Source of the DNA: Candidatus Binatia bacterium
GTDB lineage: Bacteria; Desulfobacterota; Binatia; UBA9968; JAJDTQ01
Direction: 5' to 3'
DNA length: 64,000 nt
Assembly: GCA_963666515.2 (NCBI GenBank)
Contig: OY762897.2
Coordinates: 2,848,001 to 2,912,000, forward strand
The position numbers and the translations under genes are program-made. Positions within the stretch are counted from its first letter, which is position 1. The number at the start of each line of letters is the position of its first letter. Positions 1-12,684 of the stretch are shown one piece after another. The notes below the pieces were generated by a model. The model searched no databases, had not been told where the DNA came from, and saw nothing but the letters and a program-made list of their open reading frames with translations.

Positions 1-2327
1 GGGAACTCGAAGTCCGGCACCGTGGGCTCCTTGAGCCGCTGGTCCAGCGCCCGCAGGATCTTGTCCGGGGTGACCGGTATCTCGTGGATGCGCACGCCCA
101 CGGCGTCGTACACCGCGTTGGACACCGCGGGGATGACCGGCAGCAACGGGCCCTGGCCGGCCTCCTTGGCGCCGAAGGGACCCTCGGGGTCATCGGTCTC
201 CACCAGGATGGTCTCGATGGGCGGCGTCTCCAGCGTGGTGGGGCTCTTGTATTCGAGGATGGAGGGTATCTTGTGCACGCCCGACTTGCGGAACACCTGT
301 TCCTCCATCAGCACCTCGCCCAGGGCCATGTACACGCTCCCCTCCACCTGCCCCTGGACCCACAACGGGTTGAAGGCGCGGCCGCAGTCGTGGGCGATCC
401 ACACCTTGTCGATGCGGATTTCGCCGGTGTCGGGGTCGCAGTGCAACTCCACCACCGCGGCGGAGTAGCTGTAGGCCGGGGTGGGTCCGACGCCGGCGCC
501 CTTGTAGTCTCCCGGATGGCGGGGCGGCCGGTAGCTGCCGGTGGCTCCCAGCGTGCCGAAGCGGGTCTCCGCCCGCTCGACGCACTCGGCGAAGGCCAGG
601 CCCCGGTCCGGCAGGCTGCGGCTGCGCACCTGCCCTTCCTCCATCTCCAGGTCGTCGTCGGGCACCTCCAGGACTTCCGAGGCCACCTCGAACAGCCGCT
701 CCTTGAGGTTGCCGCAGGCCTGGATGGCGGCGTTGCCGGTCATGACCGTGACCCGGCTCGAATAGCTGCCCAGGTCCACCGGCGTGAGGTCGGTGTCCGC
801 GGTCACCACCCGCACGTCCTCGGGCCGGAGCCCCAGTTCCTCCGCCACCGCGAAGGCCAGGATGGAATCGGAGCCCTGGCCGATCTCGGTGGAGCCGCAG
901 AAGACGGTGACGCCGCCGCCCCGGTCGGCGCGGAGCTGGACCCCCGAGTGGGGCATGTCGTTCCAGTAGATGGGCAGGCCGGCGCCGCTGATGTAGGAGC
1001 TGGCGGCGAAGCCGACGCCGTGCCCCGGCGGCAACCGGCGATGCTTCTCCTTCCAGCCGGAGGCCGCGGCCACCTTCTCGATGCATTCCCGGAGCCCGAT
1101 GGTGCTGACCCGGAGGCCGTTGACCGTGACCGTGTCGGGCTCCACCACCTGCCTGAGCCGCATGTCCACCGGGTCGAGGCCGAGCTTGTCGGCGATCTCG
1201 TCGAGCTGCACCTCCATGGCGAACCGGGGCTGGGGGGTGCCGTGGCCGCGCTTGGGGCCGCAGGGAGGCTTGTTGGTGAACACCCGCACGCCCTCGAACT
1301 TGTAGGCGGGCAGGTCGTAGGTCACGGTCTGCAGCGCGCCGGTGTAGTAGACGGTGGCCAGGCCGTAGCTGCTGTAGCCGCCGCCGTCGAGGAAGGAACG
1401 GAACCACATGGCCTTGAGGGTGCCGTCGCGCTTGACCCCGGTGCGCATCCACATCTTTACCGGGTGCCGCCCCCGGTGCACGTAGAACGACTCCTCCCGG
1501 TTGAGGGTGATCTTCACCGGCCGGCCGGTGATCATGGCCAGCTTGGCCACCGCGATCTCGTGGGAGAACGGGTCGCTCTTGCCGCCGAAGCCGCCCCCCA
1601 CCGGGGTGGCGACGACCCGGATGTGCCCCATGGGCAGGTCCAGGACCCTGGACAGGGCGCGGTGCACGTAGTGGGGCGTCTGGGTGGACGACCACAGCGT
1701 GAGCTTGCCGTCCGGCGTATAGGTCGCCAGCGCGCAGTACTGCTCCATGGGCAGGTGTGTGTTGCCCTGGAAGAAGTACGTCCCCTCGAATACCTCGTCC
1801 GCCTCCTCGAAGCCGGCGTCCACCTCGCCGAACTCGAAGGAGACCGCCTTCTGGATGTTGGCCCTGCGGTTCCAGGTGTGGATGCGGTGGTCCTCTGCTT
1901 CCAGGGCGCCCTCGATGGACAGGATGGGGTCGAGCACCTGGTAGTCGACGTCGATGAGCCGCAACGCCTCCTCGGCCGCGTCCTCGCTGACCGCCGCCAC
2001 CGCGGCCACCGGGTCGCCGACGTAGCGCACCTTGTCCACCGCCAGCGCCTCCTCGTCCTGGGTGGAGGGCATGATGCCGAACTTGGTGGGAACGTCCGCG
2101 CCGGTGATGACGGCGAGGACGCCCGGAAGCTCCAGCGCCCTCCGCATCGAGACGTCGTGAATCAGCGCGTGGGGATGCGGGCTCCGCAGCAGCCGGCAGA
2201 ACAGCATGCGCGGCAGCACCATGTCGTCCGCGTAGCGCGTGTCGCCGGCACACTTGGCCGGACCGTCGATGCGCGGCAGAGGCTTGCCGATGACCGAGAA
2301 CCCGTTCTTCTTCCCGTTCTTGCTCAT
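1..2327 (-). CDS. Xanthine dehydrogenase family molybdopterin-binding subunit, 4-hydroxybenzoyl-CoA reductase alpha (HcrA)-like; 3' end runs off the window
   Basis: Not in the ORF track because there is no stop in the window. Translated from ATG 2327: MSKNGKKNGFSVIGKPLPRIDG..RYADDM..LRSPHPHA..STQTPHY..GGGFGGK..HRGRHP..GPFGAKEAGQG. ATGA overlap with the upstream 2Fe-2S gene. Confidence 0.9.
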   Translation of the reverse strand, partial: MSKNGKKNGFSVIGKPLPRIDGPAKCAGDTRYADDMVLPRMLFCRLLRSPHPHALIHDVSMRRALELPGVLAVITGADVPTKFGIMPSTQDEEALAVDKVRYVGDPVAAVAAVSEDAAEEALRLIDVDYQVLDPILSIEGALEAEDHRIHTWNRRANIQKAVSFEFGEVDAGFEEADEVFEGTYFFQGNTHLPMEQYCALATYTPDGKLTLWSSTQTPHYVHRALSRVLDLPMGHIRVVATPVGGGFGGKSDPFSHEIAVAKLAMITGRPVKITLNREESFYVHRGRHPVKMWMRTGVKRDGTLKAMWFRSFLDGGGYSSYGLATVYYTGALQTVTYDLPAYKFEGVRVFTNKPPCGPKRGHGTPQPRFAMEVQLDEIADKLGLDPVDMRLRQVVEPDTVTVNGLRVSTIGLRECIEKVAAASGWKEKHRRLPPGHGVGFAASSYISGAGLPIYWNDMPHSGVQLRADRGGGVTVFCGSTEIGQGSDSILAFAVAEELGLRPEDVRVVTADTDLTPVDLGSYSSRVTVMTGNAAIQACGNLKERLFEVASEVLEVPDDDLEMEEGQVRSRSLPDRGLAFAECVERAETRFGTLGATGSYRPPRHPGDYKGAGVGPTPAYSYSAAVVELHCDPDTGEIRIDKVWIAHDCGRAFNPLWVQGQVEGSVYMALGEVLMEEQVFRKSGVHKIPSILEYKSPTTLETPPIETILVETDDPEGPFGAKEAGQGPLLPVIPAVSNAVYDAVGVRIHEIPVTPDKILRALDQRLKEPTVPDFEF

Positions 2328-2830
2328 GTCGGCTGCGACCCATTCATTTCGGTAACGGCTTGCTCCACCGCCTCGATGATCTTGGTATAGCCGGTGCAGC
2401 GGCACAGGTTCCCCGACAGCGCCTCCTCGATGTCCGCCCGGGCCGGGTCCGGCTGCTTGTCCAGCAGCGCCTTGGCCGCCAGCAGGATGCCGGGGATGCA
2501 GTAGCCGCACTGGGCGGCGCTCAGGTCCGAGAACGCCCGCTGCAAGGGATGCGGCCGGCCTCCTTGCGCCAACCCCTCGACGGTGGTGATCTCCGGGCCC
2601 TCGGCCTCCACGGCCAGCATCAGGCACGAGTAGACGGGCTCGCCGTCCACCAGCACCGTGCAGGTGCCGCACTCGCCCAGCTCGCAGCCGTGCTTGGTGC
2701 CGGTGAGGCCCATCTCTTCCCGAAGCACCTCCAGCAGGCTGTGGGTGACGTGGCCCGCCACCTCGTGCTCCTCGCCGTTGACCCGCAGGCGCAGCAGCCG
2801 CTTGCCGGTGATGGTCTCGCTTTGGGACAT
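2324..2830 (-). CDS. (2Fe-2S)-binding small subunit (CoxS/HcrC/XdhC family)
   Basis: GTKHGCELGECGTCTV, YSCL, QCGYC, GNLCRCTGY motifs. Start is ATG 2830 or TTG 2842. Confidence 0.93.
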   Translation of the reverse strand: MSQSETITGKRLLRLRVNGEEHEVAGHVTHSLLEVLREEMGLTGTKHGCELGECGTCTVLVDGEPVYSCLMLAVEAEGPEITTVEGLAQGGRPHPLQRAFSDLSAAQCGYCIPGILLAAKALLDKQPDPARADIEEALSGNLCRCTGYTKIIEAVEQAVTEMNGSQPT

Positions 2831-2838
2831 CGCGTCGC

Positions 2839-4155
2839 TCAATTCCGAAAGAACCTCCTGGCCTTCAGCTCGAAACGGGGCAGGGTCTCCGGCGCCGCCA
2901 CCTCCACCACCGGGCGGATGTGCAGGTTGTCCCGGACGGCCTCGGTCACGGCCTCCCGGAGCCCCGCCGGCGCCCCGGCCGCGACCGGCTCCACCGTGAT
3001 CTTCAACTCGGCCATCCCATCGGTCTGCACCACGTCCACGCGGAATTCCTCCACCTCGGGGAACCGCCGGACGATGCCTTCCACCGCGCTCGGGAAGACG
3101 TTCACTCCCCGTACCACCACCATATCATCCACGCGGCCCAGGACGCCCCCCTGCAATACCAGCGAGTCGCGCCCGCAAGCGCAGGGGCCGCGCCGGGGCT
3201 CCACCAGGTCGCCGGTGCGGTAGCGGATGACCGGGCTCCCGACCCGGCCCAGGTTCGTCAGCACCAGCTCCCCCCGTGCGCCCTCCGGCAGCGGTCCGCC
3301 GCTACCCACGTCCGCCTGCTCCTCAGGGCCGGTGACCTCGCCCCGGACACCACGGTCCGGCAGCGGGCGCCCGCTCTCCACGTCCACCACCTCGGCGATG
3401 AACTCGTCCTCGTTGACGTGGACTCCTTCCGCCAGGGCGTCGCAGGCGAAGCCGAAGGCGCCCACCTCGGTGGCGCCGGTGTGGTCGAAGCAGCGGGCGC
3501 CCCACGCCTCCTCGATGCGCTGCTTCGTCGACGCGATGCTGGCGCCGGGCTCACCCGCGTGGACCGTTGTCCGCACGGCCGAATCCCGCGCCAGGTCCAT
3601 GCCCGCGCGGCGCGCCTCCGCCGCCATGTGCAACGCGTACGTGGGGGTGCACACCAGCACGGTGGCGCCGTACTCCACGAGGCTCTTGAGCCGCTGCTGC
3701 GTGGACTGCCCGCCGCCGGAGACGGCCAAGGCGCCCACCTTGCGGGCGCCTTCCCAGCCGCTCCAGAACCCTATGAACGGCCCGAAGGAGAACGCGAAGA
3801 AGATCCGGTCCGCGGGCCCCACCCCGGCCGCTTCCAGCACCGCTTTCCAGCACTCGCCCCACCAGTCCCAAGACGCCTCGGTATCGAGCCAGTACATGGG
3901 CCGCCCGGTGGTCCCCGAGGTCTGGTGCACGCGCACGTAGCGCTCCGGCGGATAGGTCAGGTCGCTGCCGAACGGCGGGCGCCCGAGCTGGTCGTCCACC
4001 AGCTCCTGCTTGGTGGTGAACGGCAGCTCCGAGAACCGTTGCAGCCCCTCCAGGGGCCGTTCGACGCACCCTTCGAGCTTGCGGCGATAGAACGCGTTGG
4101 TGCGGAGCACCTCGTCGAGCATGCCGTTGAGCCTGTCCAACCGGGCGCGTTCCAT
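2839..4155 (-). CDS. Phenylacetate-CoA ligase (PaaK)-like AMP-binding enzyme
   Basis: LPFTTKQEL, QTSGTTGRP, DHTGATEVG, RYRTGD, GRVDDM..RGVNVFP motifs. Start MERARL inferred. Confidence 0.88.
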   Translation of the reverse strand: MERARLDRLNGMLDEVLRTNAFYRRKLEGCVERPLEGLQRFSELPFTTKQELVDDQLGRPPFGSDLTYPPERYVRVHQTSGTTGRPMYWLDTEASWDWWGECWKAVLEAAGVGPADRIFFAFSFGPFIGFWSGWEGARKVGALAVSGGGQSTQQRLKSLVEYGATVLVCTPTYALHMAAEARRAGMDLARDSAVRTTVHAGEPGASIASTKQRIEEAWGARCFDHTGATEVGAFGFACDALAEGVHVNEDEFIAEVVDVESGRPLPDRGVRGEVTGPEEQADVGSGGPLPEGARGELVLTNLGRVGSPVIRYRTGDLVEPRRGPCACGRDSLVLQGGVLGRVDDMVVVRGVNVFPSAVEGIVRRFPEVEEFRVDVVQTDGMAELKITVEPVAAGAPAGLREAVTEAVRDNLHIRPVVEVAAPETLPRFELKARRFFRN

Positions 4156-4186
4156 CGTCCCGTCAACTTTGACACGGAACGCGGAT

Positions 4187-5101
4187 TCAGCCAAGGCGCA
4201 GTCCGGGACGGAGACCCGCGGCGCCGGCGTATTCGGCGGCGGCGACCTTGACGCGGGAATCATGCGCCCTCACCCGCTGCACCCGCACGCTCGCCCCGCC
4301 CGCGGCCACCGCCATGCCGGCGTCCGAGAGGTCGAGGATCTCTCCGGGAGCGCCCTTGTCCGCGGCCAACCGGCTGCCGTAGAGCTTGAGCCGGTTGCCG
4401 CCGACGGTGGTCCAGGCGCCGGGCTGCGGGTCGGTGCCGCAGATGAGGCGGTGCACCTCCTCGGCCGGCCTGGACCAGTCCACCTCGGCGTCCGCCTCGC
4501 CGCACCAGCTCTCGTAGGTTGCCCGGCCGTGGTCCTGCGCGATGCGCGGCGCGGCGCCGGCGCGCACCAGTTCCACCGCCTCGGCCATCGCATCGACGCC
4601 CATGGGGAACAGCTTGCCGAAGTAGAGGCTGCCCACGGTATCGTCCTCGGCGATTTCCACCTCCTTCTGCAGCAGGATCGGACCCTCGTCCAGGCCCTCG
4701 TCCGGCCAGAAGATGGTGAGCCCGGTCTTCTCGTCTCCCATGATGCGCGCCCAGTTGATGGAGCTGGGGCCGCGGTGCAGCGGCAACAGCGAGGGATGGT
4801 ACTGGATCGTGCCCAGCGCGGGCGCGTCCAGCACCCGCCGCGGCACCAGCAGCGTCACGTAGGCCATGACGCACAGGTCGGGTTGGAACGACTCTATCAG
4901 GGCCAGCGCTTCGTCCGTCTTCCAGGTCGCCGGCTGGCGCACCGGCAGCCCGCGCTCCAGCGCCGCTTCCTTGAGCGGGTCCACGGGCCGGCCCTCGTGG
5001 TCCTGCGGACAGAAGACGCCCACCACCTCGTCCGGACCCGACTCCAGCCGTTCCAACACGGCCTTGCCGAACGCCTGTTGCCCGTGGATCAGAATACGCA
5101 T
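4187..5101 (-). CDS. Formyltransferase family protein (Fmt / 10-formyl-THF hydrolase-like)
   Basis: MRILIHGQQAFG, YHPSLLPLHRGPSSINW, GLTIFWPDEGLDEG, and a C-terminal DPQPGAW motif. Confidence 0.85.
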   Translation of the reverse strand: MRILIHGQQAFGKAVLERLESGPDEVVGVFCPQDHEGRPVDPLKEAALERGLPVRQPATWKTDEALALIESFQPDLCVMAYVTLLVPRRVLDAPALGTIQYHPSLLPLHRGPSSINWARIMGDEKTGLTIFWPDEGLDEGPILLQKEVEIAEDDTVGSLYFGKLFPMGVDAMAEAVELVRAGAAPRIAQDHGRATYESWCGEADAEVDWSRPAEEVHRLICGTDPQPGAWTTVGGNRLKLYGSRLAADKGAPGEILDLSDAGMAVAAGGASVRVQRVRAHDSRVKVAAAEYAGAAGLRPGLRLG

Positions 5102-5379
5102 CGGTTCTCCTGTAATACTTGCTTGACACACAGGCCGTCCTTTCCTAGTCTCAATCCTGAACACTCCCGCAGAAGGTCCGTGCGTCGGGCCTTCCGCCAA
5201 ATACAACAGCCCGATCTGGCAATGGGTAGCTCCCGGCGCTTGGGTGAATAAGCGGAAACATCAAACACCTTCTGTGGGATGTGTTCAATGGCCCGGCAAT
5301 CCCGCCGCGCCGAAACACAACGCCGGACCACAAGCCGGCCGCCCCTTCACGTGTCCCTGACCGAGAAAGGAGACGCTGA

Positions 5380-5661
5380 ATGGCTCAGGGAGACGACATG
5401 GCTCAGGAGACGATCAGCCCGGAGCAAGAATCGCGGCAATTCCCCGTAATCGTTCATCTCGCAGGTTGGGAGGTGGTGGCAAGGGAAGAAAACCCGGGAC
5501 GATCCACCGACCATCTCCTCGTACTGGAGTATGATCCCGACCGGATTGTCCGGCATCCGATCGTACGCATTGGAAACCGGACGGCTTTCGCCGCCGATCG
5601 TGAGACTCTCCTGGAAATGGCCCGCCACATCTTGCGCACGCTGGATCCCGGGGCTCGTTGA
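5380..5661 (+). CDS. Hypothetical protein
   Basis: AAGGAG RBS before ATG 5380 (alternative ATG 5398). Natural-looking composition, no recognised motif. Confidence 0.55.
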   Translation: MAQGDDMAQETISPEQESRQFPVIVHLAGWEVVAREENPGRSTDHLLVLEYDPDRIVRHPIVRIGNRTAFAADRETLLEMARHILRTLDPGAR

Positions 5662-5753
5662 CACCATCGAACCGCTCTGGTATCGGCGTATCATGGACCG
5701 CCAAGGGTCCGTTCCGCAGGATTCCAGGCCTGACGACTTGCAGGAGGTGACCG

Positions 5754-6794
5754 ATGGACAGACATGAACCGCGCGGGGTCGTGCATTGGATCGATCATTT
5801 CATCGTGGGCACCAACGACATGGTGACCTGGGTGGACTGGGCGGTGAACGCCACCGGCATCACCCGGCGGCCGATCCGCGGCATCACCACCAAGGCGCGC
5901 AAGAAGGACGTGCCGATCATGTGCTTCCTGTGGTGGGACGGCGAGTCGTGCCGCATCGGCGCGTTCCTCCAGCCGGAGGTCTATCCGACCGCCAAGCCGC
6001 TGGGCGAGGAGCTGCCGCGGTGCGGCTTCTACATCCGGCCCGAGGACGTGGACCGACACCTCAAGCGGCTCGAACGCCACGACATCCCCCACACCGACCC
6101 GGTACGGACCGCGGACGGCGGCGACGAGGGCACGGTGATCTACTTCGCCGACCCCGACGGCAACCAGTTCGAGTTCTGGGCGCCGGAGCACATGCCCGAA
6201 GGCGCCATGGAGATATGCACCTCGGAAGGCGTCGGCCGCATCAGCCACGCGGTGTACGGCTCCCGGGACCTCGGCCGCACCGCCGACTTCTTCGGCAGGT
6301 ATTGCGCCCTGGAACCCGAGGTGAACCCCAACGTCGCCGAGGGCAACCTGGTGCTGCGGCTTCAAGCCGGCGGCCGGCTCATCTACAAGCTCACGGAGCA
6401 GGTGGACGAACGCGTGGCCGGGCACGGCCCCTGGTGGGACATGCACACGGCGCTGACGGTGCGGGCGGAGGAGTTCATGCCCAACTACCGGCGCATGTGG
6501 GAGACCCTGCCCGAGGAAGCCATGGCCAAGGAAGAGGACACCCTGACCCTGGAGGAAGAGGACGCGCTGCCGGCGCGCACCGGCCTGCACCGGAGCCCGG
6601 TGGGCTACCGCTGGAAGGCCATGTTCGAGCGCGGCGACGAGTTCTACGACTGGGACGGCCACGCCTTCCACTTCTTCGGCGGCAAGCCCGTGAAGGACGA
6701 CGGCTCGCTGGCCCTCTACACCATCGTAGAGCAGGAAGACTACCTCACCGACGTCGCCGTCGAGGCCGAGAAGGCCCAGGCCGCCCAAGGCTGA
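5754..6794 (+). CDS. Two-domain VOC (glyoxalase / extradiol dioxygenase fold) protein
   Basis: GGAGG RBS; IDHFIV..YFADPDGNQFEF and ISHAVY..HTAL..FYDWDGHAFHF repeated modules. Confidence 0.8.
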   Translation: MDRHEPRGVVHWIDHFIVGTNDMVTWVDWAVNATGITRRPIRGITTKARKKDVPIMCFLWWDGESCRIGAFLQPEVYPTAKPLGEELPRCGFYIRPEDVDRHLKRLERHDIPHTDPVRTADGGDEGTVIYFADPDGNQFEFWAPEHMPEGAMEICTSEGVGRISHAVYGSRDLGRTADFFGRYCALEPEVNPNVAEGNLVLRLQAGGRLIYKLTEQVDERVAGHGPWWDMHTALTVRAEEFMPNYRRMWETLPEEAMAKEEDTLTLEEEDALPARTGLHRSPVGYRWKAMFERGDEFYDWDGHAFHFFGGKPVKDDGSLALYTIVEQEDYLTDVAVEAEKAQAAQG

Positions 6795-6819
6795 CGGCTG
6801 TTTCAGCGAGGAGGTTTTC

Positions 6820-7704
6820 ATGGAAGTGGTCAAGGTCGACTTCAACAACACCAAGGGGATCCCGCCGTCGGGTCTGTGCGTGGGCGTGCACCGCGCCGGG
6901 GCCATGCACCAGAAGATGGTGCAGAAATACGGCAACGGCATCGCCGTCTGGTCCCTGCGGCCCGAGAACGACTTCATCGCCTTCAAGTCGCTGGAAGACG
7001 AGGAGGGCATCCGCTCCACCAACGACATGGACTCCATCAAGGACGAGAAGCTCATCTACGGCGTGCGCGGCGCGCCGCCGGAGATCCGCAGGCAGGCGAA
7101 GGAGCAGGGCCTGGAGCTTCTGGCCGACGCCACCTGCCCGTTCGTGGTGCAGCAGGAGGAAGCCGAGTTGGAGCTGCTGGACCAGGGCTGCCACCTGGTG
7201 ATCCTGAGCAGCCGCACGCACCACGGCATCCCGCGCCTCATGGGCATCGCCAGGGAGAAGGAGCGGGAGGTGTTCATCGTCGAGACCGAAGAGGACGTGG
7301 CCGACATCCGCCTCACCCGCTTCGAGCCCGTGGGCGTCATCGTCCAGACCACCTTCTGGATGGAGAGCTACACCAAGATCATGACCCGCATCCTGGAGCG
7401 CTTCGCCAACGTGCGCATCCGCAACACCGCCTGCATCGACTCGTTGCAGCGGCTGCCCAAGGTGGAAGAGCTGGCGCGTGACGTGGAGGCGGTGGTCATC
7501 TTCGGCTGGACCGAGGGCATGACCAACCGCATGGAGGAAGTGGCGAAGGCCTTCAACGACAACGTCCACCGCATCGAGAAGATCGAGGACCTGGACCGCT
7601 CCTGGTTCACGGGCAAGTCCCGTGTCGGCATCGTCGGCGCCAACGAGACCACCGACGAGCTGGTGGACGAGGCGGTGGAGCGCATCAAGTCCATGGCGGC
7701 GTGA
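6820..7704 (+). CDS. Divergent IspH/LytB-fold [4Fe-4S] protein
   Basis: GLCVGVHRA (C20), DATCPFV (C106), QTT and NTAC (C205) align to IspH; substrate-binding motifs are replaced. GAGGAGG RBS. Confidence 0.8.
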   Translation: MEVVKVDFNNTKGIPPSGLCVGVHRAGAMHQKMVQKYGNGIAVWSLRPENDFIAFKSLEDEEGIRSTNDMDSIKDEKLIYGVRGAPPEIRRQAKEQGLELLADATCPFVVQQEEAELELLDQGCHLVILSSRTHHGIPRLMGIAREKEREVFIVETEEDVADIRLTRFEPVGVIVQTTFWMESYTKIMTRILERFANVRIRNTACIDSLQRLPKVEELARDVEAVVIFGWTEGMTNRMEEVAKAFNDNVHRIEKIEDLDRSWFTGKSRVGIVGANETTDELVDEAVERIKSMAA

Positions 7705-7719
7705 GAGGATCGAACCCAC

Positions 7720-9186
7720 ATGTCCGAAACCGCTACGATGGAAGCCAGGCTGCCTTATCACGACCTCCGCGAATGGATGGCCCGGGCCGAGGCCCTGGGC
7801 GAGTTGCGCACCGTCACGGGCGCGAGCTGGGAGGAAGACATCGGGCTGGCCGCGGACGCGGTGATCCGGGAAGACGACGGGCCGGCGGTGCTCTTCGACG
7901 AGGTGCCCGGCTGTCCCAAGGGGTTCCGTGTCCTGATCAACACGTTCGCCGGCAAGCGCCGCAACATGACGCTGGGGTTTCCCGAACACCTCACCAAGCA
8001 GGAGCTGAGCCAGGCCTTCTTCGACCACTACATCAAGGTGCAGCGGCGGCTGCCGCACGTGGTGGTGGACGACGGGCCGGTGTTCGAGAACGTCCTCACC
8101 GGCGACGACATCGACGTCATGAAGTTTCCCACCCCCAAGTGGCACGCGGACGACGGCGGACGCTACATCGGCACCGGCTGCTTCTGCGTGACCATCGACC
8201 CGGAGGAGCGCTGGATCAACGTCGGCACCTACCGGGCCATGGTGCAGGACCGGAAGTCGGTGAGCCTGCTGTTCGTGCCCGGCAAGCACGCCTACATGCA
8301 CCGCAAGAAGTACTTCGACAAGGGCCAGCCCATGCCGGTGGCCCTGGTGGTGGGCAGCGACCCCATGTCGTTCTTCGTGGGGGGCACGGAGTTCCCCTAC
8401 GGCGTGTGCGAGTTCGACGTCGTCGGCGGGCTGCGCGGCGCCCCGGTGGAGGTGGTGCAGGGCAAGGTCACGGGGCTGCCTTTTCCCGCCAACGCCGAGA
8501 TCGTGCTGGAAGGCTTCCTGACACAGGACAAGCGCGCGGTGGAGGGGCCGTTCGGGGAGTGGACCGGCTACTATGCCGGCGGCGCCAGCGAGCAGCCCAC
8601 CCTGGACATCCGCGCCATCTACCACCGCAACGACCCCGTCATCCTGGGGGTGCCGCCGCTGGGGGCCGGACCCGACGAGATGGCCCGCTACCGCGCCATC
8701 ATGCGCTCGGCCATGCTCAAGCAGGAGCTGGCCAACGCCGGGGTTCCGGACGTGACCCAGGTGTGGTGCCACGAGGTCGGCGCCTCGCGCCTGCTGCACG
8801 GCATCGGCATCAGGCAGCGCTATCCCGGCCACGCCCGGCAGGCGGGCACGCTGGCCTCCACCTGCGGATCGGTGGTGTACGGCTGCAAGTTCGTCATCGT
8901 GGTGGACGACGACATCGACGTCTCCAACCTCGACCAGTTGATCTGGGCCATGCTCACCCGGTGCGACCCGGAAACCTCCATCGAGATCCTGCGCAAGATG
9001 CGCACCTCCCCCGCCGACCCGCGGGTCACGCCCGAGCAGCGCAGGACCCACGACATCACCAACTCCCGCGTCATCGTCGACGCCTGCCGTCCCTTCGAGT
9101 GGTTCGACAAGTATCCCAAGGTCAACGCGCCCAGCCCCGAGGTGGTCCGCAAGGCCCATGAGAAATTCGGCTACCTGCTGGAGTGA
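7720..9186 (+). CDS. UbiD family (prFMN-dependent) decarboxylase
   Basis: YHDLREW, DGGRYIGT, NVGTYR, AEIVLEG, EGPFGEWTGYY, VVDDDID..WAMLTRCDP, IVDACRP. Confidence 0.92.
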   Translation: MSETATMEARLPYHDLREWMARAEALGELRTVTGASWEEDIGLAADAVIREDDGPAVLFDEVPGCPKGFRVLINTFAGKRRNMTLGFPEHLTKQELSQAFFDHYIKVQRRLPHVVVDDGPVFENVLTGDDIDVMKFPTPKWHADDGGRYIGTGCFCVTIDPEERWINVGTYRAMVQDRKSVSLLFVPGKHAYMHRKKYFDKGQPMPVALVVGSDPMSFFVGGTEFPYGVCEFDVVGGLRGAPVEVVQGKVTGLPFPANAEIVLEGFLTQDKRAVEGPFGEWTGYYAGGASEQPTLDIRAIYHRNDPVILGVPPLGAGPDEMARYRAIMRSAMLKQELANAGVPDVTQVWCHEVGASRLLHGIGIRQRYPGHARQAGTLASTCGSVVYGCKFVIVVDDDIDVSNLDQLIWAMLTRCDPETSIEILRKMRTSPADPRVTPEQRRTHDITNSRVIVDACRPFEWFDKYPKVNAPSPEVVRKAHEKFGYLLE

Positions 9187-9231
9187 GCGCGGCCGCCAGC
9201 GCCCCGTCCGGTTCATTGGGACACTGGACGA

Positions 9232-9780
9232 GTGACTCCCGGCGCCACACGTTTTGCCCAGGCCGCGCTGCTGGGGGACTCCGACGCCTCCTACGACAAC
9301 TTGGCGCTGGCCGAGGACGCCGGCGAGATGCTCGCGCGGCGCGGCGTCACCCTGATCACCGGCGGCCGGGGCGGAGTCATGGAAGCGGCCTGCCGGGGCG
9401 CCGCGCGGGCCGGCGGCCTCACCGTGGGGATCACCCCCGGCACCGACACGAGAGCGGCCAACCCCTGGTGCGACATCGTCCTGCCGACCGGCCTGGGCCA
9501 TGCGCGGAACGCCCTGACGGCTCTGGCCGGCGACTTCGTCGTGGCGGTGGGCGGCGGCGCCGGCACCCTCTCCGAGCTGTGCTTCGCGTGGATGCACGGA
9601 CGGCCCATCTACGTGTTGCAGGGATCGGGCGGTTGGTCCGGCCGCCTCGCCGGCGGCGCGCTGGACCACCGCGCCTCATCGGTGATCGTCGACTGTGACG
9701 GCGTCGACGCGCTGGAGCGCGAAGTGGTGCGCTTCTGCGCCGAGCGGGACCTGAGGATACGGGAGGCGGACACGGAATGA
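9232..9780 (+). CDS. LOG/SLOG family protein (TIGR00725-like)
   Basis: TGGRGGVMEAACRGA, TGLGHARN, GGGAGTLSEL motifs. Confidence 0.85.
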   Translation: MTPGATRFAQAALLGDSDASYDNLALAEDAGEMLARRGVTLITGGRGGVMEAACRGAARAGGLTVGITPGTDTRAANPWCDIVLPTGLGHARNALTALAGDFVVAVGGGAGTLSELCFAWMHGRPIYVLQGSGGWSGRLAGGALDHRASSVIVDCDGVDALEREVVRFCAERDLRIREADTE

Positions 9781-9835
9781 CTTTGCCCCGCCCGTGCGTG
9801 TCCTCGCCAGAATTGGCCGGACACGACGCTGGTTC

Positions 9836-10909
9836 ATGAACGCGCGCTCACAGGCATGGTTCTGGCTCCTGGTGCTGGCCGCGGCGCTGCTGCTGGTCTG
9901 GCTGCTGAGCGCCATCCTGTTCCCCTTCGCGCTGGGCATCGCCCTTGCCTACGCCCTGGACCCGGCCGCCACGTGGCTGGAACGGCGCGGCTGCTCGCGC
10001 ACGGCCGCCACCGTGCTCATCGGCGCCGGCTTCTTCGGCGCCGGCCTGTCGGCGCTGCTGCTGCTCATCCCGCCGGTGGCGGAGCAGGCCGCGGACCTGC
10101 TCCAGCGGCTCCCGGCGCTGGTCTCCCGCCTCGTCCAGGCCATCGGGCCGCTGCTCGCCCGGGCGCTGAACGCCATCGGCGCCGACCAGCCGGAGGGACT
10201 GCACCAGACCATGGCCGGGAACCTTCAGCGGCTGACGAAGCTCGGACTGGGGCTGCTCCAGGGCCTGGTGAGCGGCGGCGCCGCGGTCGTCAACGTCGCC
10301 TCCCTTCTCACCATCACGCCCCTCACCACATTCTACATGCTCCGGCAGTGGCCCGGCATCGTGTCCACCGTCGACGGCTGGCTGCCGCGGGACCACGCCG
10401 GCACGGTGCGCGGCATCATGCGCGACATCGACGTGGTGCTCAAGGGTTTCCTCCACGGCTCGGTCATCATCTGCGCCGCGCTGGGGGCCTTCTACGGCGT
10501 GGCCCTCTCGCTGGCGGGACTGGACTACGGCCTCACCATCGGCCTCGTCACCGGCGCCCTCTCCTTCATCCCTTACGTGGGGACGATCTTCGGGCTGGTA
10601 TCGTCCGTCGGCGTCGCCTGCCTCCAGTTCTGGCCGGAATGGGTCCGCATCGCCCTGGTCCTGGGGATCTTCCTGGTGGGGCAGTTGCTGGCCGACTACG
10701 TGCTGACGCCGCGGGTCATGGGCAGCCGCATCGCCGTCCATCCCTTGTGGCTGATCTTCGGCCTGTTCGCCGGCGGCGCTCTCTTCGGCTTCGTCGGCAT
10801 GCTGCTCTCCGTCCCCGCCACCGCCGCCGCCGGCGTCCTCGCCCGCTTCTTCATCGGGCGCTACAAGGAATCGTCGCTGTACCGCGGCGCCGGCGGTGGA
10901 ACCCCGTAG
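9836..10909 (+). CDS. AI-2E (PerM) family transporter
   Basis: Multi-TM protein with LAYALDP, SFIPYVG, LTPRVMG..VHPLW..FGFVGMLL.VP. Confidence 0.88.
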   Translation: MNARSQAWFWLLVLAAALLLVWLLSAILFPFALGIALAYALDPAATWLERRGCSRTAATVLIGAGFFGAGLSALLLLIPPVAEQAADLLQRLPALVSRLVQAIGPLLARALNAIGADQPEGLHQTMAGNLQRLTKLGLGLLQGLVSGGAAVVNVASLLTITPLTTFYMLRQWPGIVSTVDGWLPRDHAGTVRGIMRDIDVVLKGFLHGSVIICAALGAFYGVALSLAGLDYGLTIGLVTGALSFIPYVGTIFGLVSSVGVACLQFWPEWVRIALVLGIFLVGQLLADYVLTPRVMGSRIAVHPLWLIFGLFAGGALFGFVGMLLSVPATAAAGVLARFFIGRYKESSLYRGAGGGTP

Positions 10910-10932
10910 GGGCGACCGCCGGTCGCCCCTGC
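10906..10932. repeat. REP-like palindrome (GTAG-type)
   Basis: GTAGGGGCGACC-GCC-GGTCGCCCCTGC hairpin. It supplies the TAG stop of the AI-2E gene and lies between convergent genes. Confidence 0.7.
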
Positions 10933-10996
10933 ACAGACAGGCCGCAAACCCGGTTTCGGCCGGCTCTGCGTCATCGATGTCTCAGCACGCCGCGCC

Positions 10997-11764
10997 TCAC
11001 AGGGTCAGCTTGCGCCGCATGAGGCGCGCCGAATAGGCCACCAGCACGGTGGAGACGCCCAGGATGTAGGCCACGTCCCAGAGCAGCGCGGGTGAGGCCG
11101 GGCCGAAGAACGCGGCGCGCGCGAGCCGCACGGGATGGAGCAGGGGCAGGCACTCGGCCACCCAGAGCCAGGACGCCGACAGGCGCTCCTCCAGTGGGAA
11201 GAACACCGACGAGAAGAGGAACAGCGGCGTGAGGAACAGGGTGAAGTAGAAGCTGTACAGCTCGATGGTGCCGATGCGCAGGGTGAAGGCCAGTCCGATG
11301 GCGGAGAAGAGGAGGCCCGTCAGGGGTATCACGGGCACCACCCAGAGCGCCTGCGGCAGCGGCGCCAGCCCGGCCGCGGCCACCACCAGCGCGAAGCACA
11401 GGCCGTAGACGCACGACCGGGTCATGGACCACAGCAGCTCACCGGCCACCACGTCCACCGGTTGTATGGGCGTGGTCAGCATGGCGTCGTAGGCCTTCTC
11501 GATGTTCATACGCACGAAGATGTTGTAGGTGACCTCGAAGCTCGCGCCGTTCATGGCGGCGACGCACACGAGCCCCGGTGCCAGGAACTGGATGTAGGAG
11601 GTGCCGCCCATGGTGGTGATGTAGGCGCCGAGGCCCACGCCGAGGGACACCAGGTAGAGCACCGGCTCGAAGAAGTTGGGCAGGATGTTCCATCTCCAGG
11701 TCCGGCGGTACATGGAAGCGTTGCGGCGCCACACCGACAGGGCGTACCGCCAGGAGAGGGTCAC
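10997..11764 (-). CDS. ABC-2 type transporter permease (NodJ-like)
   Basis: GTG 11764 overlaps the ATPase stop; FFEPVLYL, YIQFLAPG, TPLFLFSSVFFP. Confidence 0.87.
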   Translation of the reverse strand: MTLSWRYALSVWRRNASMYRRTWRWNILPNFFEPVLYLVSLGVGLGAYITTMGGTSYIQFLAPGLVCVAAMNGASFEVTYNIFVRMNIEKAYDAMLTTPIQPVDVVAGELLWSMTRSCVYGLCFALVVAAAGLAPLPQALWVVPVIPLTGLLFSAIGLAFTLRIGTIELYSFYFTLFLTPLFLFSSVFFPLEERLSASWLWVAECLPLLHPVRLARAAFFGPASPALLWDVAYILGVSTVLVAYSARLMRRKLTL

Positions 11765-12684
11765 CGGTTGTCCTCGAGGCTGGTGCCGGTGAGAGTCAGG
11801 AACACGTCCTCCAGGTCGGTGGGCCGCACCGCCATGACGCTGGCGCCGATGCCGGGCAGGCGCCTGATCCGGTCCAGCAGCACGGCGGGGTCGTCCAGGT
11901 AGACCATGGTGCGGTTCCCCAGCCGGCACCGGGGCGGGCTCTCGCCCAGACCTCGCAGCAGCGCGTACTCCTGCGCCGGGGTCGCCTCGACCTCCACCGC
12001 CTGCCGGGCCAAGTAGCGCCCGATCAACTCCTCGGGCGCGCCCTGGGCGATGACGTCGCCGGCGGACATGATGGCGACGGTGTCGCACAGCCGCTGGGCC
12101 TCGTCCATGTAGTGGGTGGTCAGGAGCACGGTGGCGCCGGCGCGCCGCAACTCCCGCACCCGCGCCCACAAGCCGAGCCGCACCGCGGGGTCGAGCCCGG
12201 TGGTGGGCTCGTCCAGGATCAGCAGCTCCGGGCGGTTCATCAGCGACAGGGCCACCGCCAGCCGGCGCTGGTAGCCGCCGGACAGCTTGTCCACCGGCAC
12301 GTCCGCGTGGGAGCGCAGCTCCATGAAGTCGATGAGCTCTTCCACCCGTTGCGCCAGCCCGGCGCCGTCCATGAGGTGATACCGTCCGAAGATGGTGAGG
12401 TTGGCCCGGGGCGACAGGGTCTCGATGAGGACGTTCTGCTGGAGCGTGACGCCCAACCGCCGGCGCACCGCGCGCACGTTGCGCGACACGTCCATGCCGA
12501 ACACGCGGACGTGGCCGCTGGTGGGCAGGGTGACGCCGTAGACCATGCGCAGGGTCGTGGTCTTGCCGGCGCCGTTGGGACCCAGGAGGCCGAAGCAGAC
12601 GCCTTCGGGAACGTTCAGGGTGAGGCCGTCCACGGCCACCCGCTCGCCGAAGCGCTTGGTGACGCCCGAGACTTCAACGATCAC
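11761..12684 (-). CDS. ABC transporter ATP-binding protein (NodI/DrrA-like)
   Basis: GPNGAGKTT, LSGG, ILDEPTTGLD, TTHYMDEA. Confidence 0.93.
   Translation of the reverse strand: MIVEVSGVTKRFGERVAVDGLTLNVPEGVCFGLLGPNGAGKTTTLRMVYGVTLPTSGHVRVFGMDVSRNVRAVRRRLGVTLQQNVLIETLSPRANLTIFGRYHLMDGAGLAQRVEELIDFMELRSHADVPVDKLSGGYQRRLAVALSLMNRPELLILDEPTTGLDPAVRLGLWARVRELRRAGATVLLTTHYMDEAQRLCDTVAIMSAGDVIAQGAPEELIGRYLARQAVEVEATPAQEYALLRGLGESPPRCRLGNRTMVYLDDPAVLLDRIRRLPGIGASVMAVRPTDLEDVFLTLTGTSLEDNR

Follow-up and report, generated by a model that had tools for sequence, protein, structure and literature searches.

An IspH-like protein with an apparently rebuilt pocket and a ferredoxin partner, encoded next to a UbiD-family gene in Candidatus Binatia

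What does a second protein of the IspH fold do in a bacterium that already carries a canonical ispH, and does it matter that its gene lies directly before one for a UbiD-family decarboxylase? The question is raised by a 64,000-nucleotide stretch of Candidatus Binatia DNA (assembly GCA_963666515.2, contig OY762897.2, positions 2,848,001 to 2,912,000), which we call the window; it corresponds to G000:C1:2848001-2912000, where G000 denotes the window's own genome of 4.67 Mb and ~68% GC. Between positions 5754 and 9780, genes for a VOC protein, an IspH-like protein that we name IspHL, a UbiD-family protein and a SLOG-fold protein all lie on the plus strand, separated by 25, 15 and 45 bp (Table 1). 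An earlier sequence-only reading had described these four co-oriented genes, and both the listing of open reading frames and codon-position GC agree with it on this point, third-position GC being 0.90-0.96 as expected for real genes in a 68% GC genome. IspH is of interest as a target of antibiotics and antimalarials and for its unusual organometallic chemistry; to our knowledge, it has so far been a one-function family. The answer that we favor, and put forward tentatively, is that IspHL uses a [4Fe-4S] cluster and electrons from a ferredoxin to reduce a substrate that has no diphosphate, and that it has a facultative pathway link to a decarboxylase resembling PhdA.

By fold, IspHL belongs with IspH. 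It matches the Pfam LYTB model PF02401 and yet stays below the cut-off of all seven NCBIfam IspH equivalog models (TIGR00216 122.0 vs. 187.85; NF002187 136.1 vs. 276), and its AlphaFold2 model (predicted local distance difference test, pLDDT, 90.3) reaches a template modeling (TM) score of 0.85 to substrate-bound E. coli IspH 3SZU. We surveyed its residues in a multiple alignment of 25 IspHL subfamily members and 96 canonical IspH representatives. The equivalents of C12, C96, C197, H124 and T167 (E. coli numbering) are unchanged in 25/25 subfamily members, and canonical proteins keep them too. Pairwise alignment to E. coli IspH places the three cysteines at C20, C106 and C205 of IspHL and finds QTT (equivalents of Q166/T167/T168) conserved, both as the sequence-only reading had it. 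Every substitution that it had listed was likewise reproduced (VHN to PEN, AHG to VRG, HPE to HHG, SSN to EGM, GAS to ANE), with refinements at two positions. The H41 equivalent is E49 in the alignment to the E. coli protein and D51 in the alignment to that of Aquifex, both positions being acidic across the subfamily. The E126 column of the multiple alignment is occupied by R139 in 25/25 members (E in 94/96 canonical proteins), and multiple alignments place a three-residue insertion, H135-G136-I137 (HGI), after H134 (E. coli H124) and before this column; an ungapped pairwise alignment puts G136 opposite E126.

The replacements are nearly uniform at the other positions as well. H74 is R in 25/25 subfamily members (H in 93/96 canonical proteins), S225 is E in 24/25 (S in 95/96), N227 is M in 24/25 (N in 95/96) and S269 is E in 23/25 (S in 95/96), and R47, R83, R139, F179, W180 and W230 are among the residues that are newly invariant, or nearly so. 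According to a review, the diphosphate pocket of IspH is formed by H41, H74, H124, S225, S269, T168, N227 and Q166, and E126Q/D/A mutants are almost inactive (PMC8837944). The catalytic proton donor of IspH, E126, is not kept in IspHL. Judged from the alignments, IspHL keeps the cluster site and its immediate surroundings, and its diphosphate site and proton donor are apparently rebuilt.

The source genome probably does not depend on IspHL for its methylerythritol phosphate (MEP) pathway. Elsewhere in G000 lie ispG and a canonical ispH that scores 324.7 bits and has all of its catalytic residues, and a canonical ispH is present in every IspHL-carrying genome (27 of the 41 searched, G000 included). 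A single ubiX match (TIGR00421, 235.4 bits) was found in G000, outside the window (Table 1); the sequence-only reading was right that the window has no UbiX gene, and the canonical ispH and ubiX for which it suggested looking elsewhere in the genome are both present. In pairwise comparisons of the window with its 25 congener loci, the ratio of non-synonymous to synonymous substitution rates (dN/dS) of IspHL is 0.118, which indicates purifying selection and no decay; the corresponding values for its neighbors are 0.103 (UbiD), 0.143 (VOC, n=14) and 0.228 (SLOG). The proposal that IspHL is a neofunctionalized Fe-S protein outside the MEP pathway is supported by the canonical ispH and ispG elsewhere, by substitutions that are fixed in the subfamily and by a dN/dS of about 0.12. 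By its sequence relationships, IspHL represents a small subfamily of neofunctionalized IspH-fold proteins. A HMMER scan of 1.84 billion representatives with IspHL returned only 24 hits below 1e-30; full-length relatives were found at 73%, 43%, 38%, 36% and 33% identity, and canonical IspH proteins begin at no more than 32%. The subfamily separates from canonical IspH in a quick tree with a Shimodaira-Hasegawa-like approximate likelihood-ratio test (SH-aLRT) support of 98. Among 301 sampled Binatia genomes it occurs in 29, all of one order; by family, the counts are 20/20 in f1, 4/4 in f2, 4/25 in f3 and 0/252 in 17 other families. A published account of a remodeled IspH clade was not found among the papers listed by the literature searches, and IspHL is probably an undescribed reductase.

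Some observations on individual members stand apart from this picture. The encoding contigs of the most distant members, P0127 (43% identity) and P0133 (38%), both singletons from JGI and NCBI, were not found in two metagenome scans. In one fragmented metagenome-assembled genome (MAG; locus L076), IspHL is present in two overlapping pieces (residues 1-220 and 85-294), which a frameshift, partial duplication or misassembly could explain. Binatia-like IspHL-ferredoxin pairs (72-76% identity) also occur inside MAGs titled Gaiellaceae, Udaeobacter or Verrucomicrobiia (L046, L049, L052, L061, L077, L078, L080), with five such contigs in one Udaeobacter MAG; this suggests mis-binning or strain mixture rather than transfer.

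The most constant partner of IspHL is a ferredoxin. We fetched 64 loci (L-numbers) from species-representative genomes, the close relatives being public Candidatus Binatia MAGs; 25 are congener loci (88-96% identity), and 35 loci from outside the genus reach past the IspHL gene. Directly downstream of IspHL in 32 of these 35 (the exceptions are L069, L072 and L074) lies a gene for a 93-101-aa 2Fe-2S ferredoxin, with a gap of ~6-30 bp, and no other general neighbor of IspHL was found among the 35. Less frequent neighbors are SsuA-like binding proteins (12 loci), CMD-family proteins (11), ornithine cyclodeaminase (OCD)/mu-crystallin proteins (9), a reductive-dehalogenase (RDH)-like 4Fe-4S protein (8), cupins (4) and small VOC proteins (4). 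L075 and L081, whose IspHL proteins are 56-57% identical to that of the window, have the order TauE-IspHL-ferredoxin-UbiD, and L081 additionally carries a divergent ferredoxin-NAD reductase of the AndAa/HcaD type (402.7 bits to AndAa).

Several of these neighbors deserve a remark of their own. The RDH-like neighbor is a 301-aa 4Fe-4S dicluster protein found in L049 and seven other soil-type loci, two to five genes downstream of IspHL (+2 to +5); it scores 120.7 with TIGR02486 against a cut-off of 160.35 and has a 75% identical orthologue in G000. The OCD/mu-crystallin family is expanded in G000, with 32 matches (examples in Table 1). An organosulfonate role, brought up by TauE upstream in L075 and L081 and by the SsuA-like proteins, was rejected: the thiamine pyrophosphate enzyme of L081 is not Xsc (82.3 vs. 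676.4), and the SsuA model is below its cut-off.

The ferredoxin has not vanished from the window's genome. Its orthologue, the only match in G000 (74% identity), lies 1.4 Mb from IspHL at a site with the order metallo-beta-lactamase (MBL) hydrolase, 145-aa VOC, ferredoxin, and without IspHL. The f2 loci L056 and L057 have the order MBL, IspHL, ferredoxin, with PurU between MBL and IspHL in L056. Because the MBL-VOC-ferredoxin site of G000 matches this f2-type arrangement minus IspHL, the simplest reading is that IspHL departed from the MBL-ferredoxin site in the ancestor of the genus and was inserted before UbiD. The window VOC protein and the 145-aa VOC protein at the old ferredoxin site have no significant similarity (E 0.22). 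Beside the ferredoxin site lies a gene whose 536-aa product ends in a deaminase domain of the cytidine/MafB19/Bd3614 type; the gene may be foreign given its low GC at third positions (0.55 against ~0.9).

The UbiD protein that now follows IspHL matches UbiD_N (211.5 bits), UbiD (99.3) and UbiD_C (35.3) and exceeds the cut-off of TIGR00148 (266.5 vs. 244.85), whereas none of the specific NCBIfam UbiD equivalog models is matched above its cut-off. Its residues R172, E275 and E280 are invariant among 21 aligned sequences and, to judge from their positions, would correspond to the Arg-Glu-Glu motif of Fdc1 (R173/E277/E282). The best PDB match is 7PDA (372 bits, residues 13-470). This structure is that of PhdA, the phenazine-1-carboxylic acid decarboxylase of Mycolicibacterium fortuitum (PMC10850782). 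The match points to (hetero)aromatic acids as candidate substrates. UbiD proteins are plentiful in this lineage: G000 has ~34 paralogues (tblastn matches of more than 300 aa), a first look gave 26-72 candidates per genome in the window's order, and among 121 sampled Binatia genomes UbiD was found in 16/16 from that order, none of them with fewer than 23 matches, vs. 2/105 elsewhere. A paper that mentions both UbiD and Binat* was not found in the literature searched.

Within the window's genus the association of IspHL with UbiD is strict. The order IspHL-UbiD-SLOG is present in 25/25 congener loci at a dS of ~0.3, and outside the genus UbiD lies beside IspHL in only 2 of 35 loci, L075 and L081. 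The UbiDs of these two loci form one clade (SH-aLRT 100) with the window UbiD and its 70-78% identical orthologues, to the exclusion of 33 other G000 paralogues. Set against the IspHL tree, this means that the same UbiD subfamily adjoins IspHL in two separated IspHL branches. RNA-library contigs of relatives, from two studies, also bridge the two genes (X19 record 10 = 6830-9227; X20 record 18 = 6857-7844), which fits co-transcription of IspHL and UbiD; VOC is found on separate RNA-library contigs. The sequence-only reading had proposed to look for an IspH clade that co-occurs with UbiD and VOC genes. The clade is there, UbiD adjoins it in the genus and in L075 and L081 and not in the other 33 non-genus loci, and VOC is an unstable neighbor.

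It should be noted that several observations weigh against a reductase linked to UbiD. E126 is replaced by R or G, from which a different chemistry, or none, could follow. Support for the UbiD clade comes from SH-aLRT values of a quick tree and from no other measure, and the RNA-library contigs are no proof of a single transcript as DNA can be present in such libraries. Four f2 genomes have IspHL and ferredoxin and no UbiD above 49% identity to that of the window; five f3 genomes have a UbiD orthologue (70-75%) and no IspHL; and in another four f3 genomes both occur unlinked, ~590 kb apart in G252. IspHL, SLOG and VOC were not found near the f3 UbiD orthologues. In two congeners an antisense AAA_14/DUF4143 gene stands between IspHL and UbiD, and with ~34 UbiD genes per genome the probability of a chance UbiD neighbor is not negligible. 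As IspHL and UbiD are each found without the other, each can evidently function alone; an obligate complex, or a general part for IspHL in maturing UbiD proteins, is accordingly less likely. A prediction of an IspHL-UbiD complex scored 0.00 against a mark of 0.32 and gives no verdict either way.

These points lead to the most serious competing explanation, namely that the IspHL-ferredoxin module functions on its own and that the UbiD adjacency is a by-product of rearrangement in a UbiD-crowded genome. The 33 non-genus loci without an adjoining UbiD, the independent occurrence of IspHL and the UbiD orthologue in f2 and f3, the ~34 paralogues in G000, the rearrangement hot spot upstream and the antisense gene that splits the pair in L020 and L030 all speak for it. 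However, a by-product would have to account for one UbiD subfamily of ~34 adjoining IspHL in the distant L075 and L081, for an adjacency kept in all 25 congener species and for the RNA-library contigs that bridge the two genes, and we consider independent function rather unlikely while giving it real weight. We regard two other explanations, which concern IspHL itself, as far less probable. A non-catalytic Fe-S protein that has kept the fold, such as a binding protein or a sensor of metabolites or redox state, would agree with the change of catalytic E126 to R or G, and a report on activity of the subfamily was not found among the papers listed by the literature searches; but the apical-iron environment (three Cys, T167 and H124) and the new invariant pocket residues are strongly constrained, and the tight coupling to ferredoxin better suits a redox enzyme, which makes this very unlikely. 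That IspHL is still a reductase of hydroxymethylbutenyl diphosphate (HMBPP), as a divergent or back-up MEP isozyme, is suggested by the PF02401 match and by sources in which relatives are labeled HMBPP reductase. Against this, IspHL stays under every equivalog cut-off, five diphosphate-binding residues and E126 are replaced (three by acidic residues) and all carriers among the genomes searched possess a canonical ispH; we give this explanation hardly any credence.

A role in the supply or upkeep of prenylated FMN (prFMN) was among the ideas of the sequence-only reading, which took the VOC, IspH-like, UbiD and LOG-like genes as a candidate prFMN-linked pathway. A four-gene unit of that kind is not supported, considering that VOC is unstable, that the constant partner is a ferredoxin and that co-occurrence with UbiD is not strict. 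IspHL could nevertheless serve prFMN by making a prenyl donor from a non-diphosphate precursor (e.g., dimethylallyl monophosphate, DMAP, from hydroxymethylbutenyl monophosphate) or through prFMN maturation or repair, with SLOG as a cofactor carrier. The diphosphate site is rebuilt but the residues that handle an allylic alcohol near the cluster are conserved, IspHL is confined to the Binatia order with the UbiD radiation (of 121 genomes sampled, 18 are UbiD-positive and 16 of these belong to that order), one ubiX stands for ~34 UbiD genes and the nearest solved relatives of SLOG are molybdenum cofactor (Moco) carrier proteins. Yet 21 of the 25 sampled f3 genomes are without IspHL, and the f3 genomes searched for UbiD are rich in it (17-38 matches; at least 23 in 7/7), ubiX is in none of the fetched loci, the constant partner is neither UbiD nor UbiX, the E126 proton donor for IspH chemistry on hydroxymethylbutenyl-type substrates is gone and the order-level association of IspHL and UbiD is a single phylogenetic event. 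Overall, we judge a prFMN role unlikely. In its boldest form, a ferredoxin-fed IspHL would act on a non-diphosphate hydroxymethylbutenyl group, yielding DMAP for UbiX or repairing hydroxylated prFMN, with SLOG handing on the cofactor and one UbiX sustaining the UbiD radiation; this we hold to be quite improbable.

As the ferredoxin-driven reductase that we favor, IspHL has most likely retained, to judge from its conserved residues, a [4Fe-4S] cluster whose apical iron is free. Most likely it has also retained the reductive chemistry of IspH, by which an unsaturated substrate bearing a hydroxyl would be dehydroxylated or dehydrated. NAD(P)H would probably be the electron source, with a ferredoxin reductase and the 2Fe-2S ferredoxin as relays to the cluster of IspHL, at whose apical iron the substrate would be reduced. 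In place of the diphosphate pocket of IspH there are two invariant Arg, 2-3 acidic residues, a Met and three aromatics, and the substrate would lack a diphosphate; the new Arg, Glu and Trp/Phe residues suggest that it probably carries anionic groups together with cationic or aromatic ones. In the window's genus, its product or substrate would probably be shared with the PhdA-like decarboxylase, so that a single class of acids, (hetero)aromatic or alpha,beta-unsaturated, would serve both proteins. From the presence of this UbiD subfamily after IspHL-ferredoxin in two distant MAGs we infer a facultative pathway link, and neither an obligate complex nor a part in cofactor maturation.

What this analysis adds is the partnership with a ferredoxin, the probable move of IspHL away from it in the window's genus, a co-occurrence with UbiD that is not strict, an orthologous UbiD beside IspHL in distant MAGs and a UbiD radiation across the order. 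As a conserved natural paralogue with its cluster site kept, its pocket rebuilt and a ferredoxin of its own, IspHL would extend IspH chemistry to a new substrate class, and it offers a comparison case for substrate selection by the IspH fold. Its link to a UbiD that resembles PhdA, in genomes with many UbiD genes and one UbiX, also marks a place in which to seek new steps in (hetero)aromatic acid metabolism or prFMN supply. Should IspHL prove to have nothing to do with UbiD, it would still stand for a new, narrowly distributed subfamily of Fe-S reductases.

Table 1. Features of the window (plain coordinates) and of the source genome (G000) and related loci (prefixed coordinates).
Feature	Location	Strand	Score or remark
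VOC (glyoxalase/dioxygenase superfamily), putatively two-module, 346 aa	5754..6794	+	PF00903 23.8 bits
IspHL, predicted IspH/LytB-fold [4Fe-4S] protein, 294 aa	6820..7704	+	PF02401 145.2 bits
UbiD-family decarboxylase, 488 aa	7720..9186	+	UbiD_N, UbiD, UbiD_C; TIGR00148
SLOG-fold TIGR00725 protein, 182 aa, GTG start	9232..9780	+	PF18306 138.6 bits; TIGR00725
AI-2E family transporter, 371 aa, 13 bp past SLOG gene	9794..10909	+	PF01594 187.5 bits
Fmt-like, PaaK-like and hydroxylase block	3..5206	-	
ubiX	G000:C1:2221310-2221855		TIGR00421
Ferredoxin orthologue	G000:C1:4253470-4253748		
UbiD paralogues (examples)	G000:C1:1162073-1163500, C1:1228576-1229994, C1:3569214-3570623		
Deaminase-domain protein, 536 aa	L101:8213-9823 (G000:C1:4254212-4255822)		beside ferredoxin site
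4Fe-4S dicluster protein, 301 aa	L049:1791-2696		TIGR02486, below cut-off
Orthologue of the dicluster protein	G000:C1:3615582-3616478		
OCD/mu-crystallin family (examples)	G000:C1:1837821-1838888, C1:1522076-1523128		
AAA_14/DUF4143 ATPase, 383 aa, between IspHL and UbiD	L020:10900-12051, L030:11100-12251	antisense	congeners
IspHL in two pieces	L076:468-1732 (G039:C427)		fragmented MAG
SLOG orthologue with in-frame TAA	G012:C1:2536927-2537466		one congener

The rest of the gene block is of unequal stability. A ribosome-binding site, GGAGG, precedes the IspHL gene; a scan of 5000-11800 gave 0 promoter-like sites and 3 terminator-like sites vs. 2.9 expected and is uninformative. VOC is a variable neighbor and no stable part of a unit, as only 14 of the 25 congener loci have it within 10 kb upstream of IspHL, and in no more than 7 is the distance within 300 bp. 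Only one of its modules is matched by the Glyoxalase model PF00903 (residues 92-141, cut-off 20.6), and in the ESM Atlas it falls in ~344-aa VOC clusters of Binatota and Chloroflexota. The upstream flank of IspHL is a rearrangement breakpoint or hot spot among congeners: its contents in L021, L027 and L034 are unrelated genes, namely those for Tad pilus and secretin, for a PAS histidine kinase, for a sigma-54 activator, or for carbonic anhydrase together with an RTX-repeat protein and a YhgA-like transposase. Downstream, SLOG follows UbiD in 25/25 congener loci, a linkage seen in the window's genus only, and the AI-2E transporter gene comes after SLOG in 22/25.

The SLOG protein had been labeled LOG-like, which its scores contradict: it exceeds the cut-off of TIGR00725 (122.3 vs. 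106.9) and falls below those of the LOG models TIGR00730 (43.8 vs. 96.35) and NF058542 (37.4 vs. 300). Its nearest solved structures, 6Y01, 2IZ5 and 1RCU (~81-83 bits), are Moco carrier proteins, and it is the sole TIGR00725 member above cut-off in G000. The orthologue of one congener has an in-frame TAA. On the minus strand at the start of the window lie genes for an Fmt-like formyltransferase, a PaaK-like CoA ligase and a xanthine-dehydrogenase-type hydroxylase with a 2Fe-2S subunit and a Moco large subunit; the ligase and both hydroxylase subunits are upstream in 9 of the 25 congener loci (7 also with Fmt), at a variable distance from IspHL. The Moco-carrier-like SLOG protein might go with this divergent hydroxylase block instead of with UbiD.

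Four known systems come closest. The 182-aa SLOG protein has its best solved relatives in the TIGR00725 proteins and the Moco carrier protein of Chlamydomonas (MCP, PDB 2IZ5), and fails by score the models of LOG, the cytokinin riboside 5'-monophosphate phosphoribohydrolase. The window UbiD shares with PhdA the architecture of a stand-alone prFMN-type decarboxylase and differs from it as one of ~34 paralogues without an adjoining ubiX-type partner. The pairing of reductase and small Fer2 ferredoxin that flanks IspHL in L081 resembles the AndAa/HcaD-type reductase/2Fe-2S ferredoxin chains of aromatic-ring dioxygenases; however, the electrons would end up on an Fe-S protein of the IspH fold and not on a Rieske oxygenase, and the window has no adjacent reductase. 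In comparison with the HMBPP reductase IspH/LytB, IspHL has 22-26% identity, scores under the equivalog cut-offs, carries the HGI insertion and is changed at H41, H74, S225, N227, S269 and E126; it is moreover a second copy beside a canonical ispH, with no isoprenoid genes nearby. What the two proteins have in common is the three-domain fold, the three Cys, the equivalents of H124, Q166, T167 and T168, and a ferredoxin as the likely electron donor.

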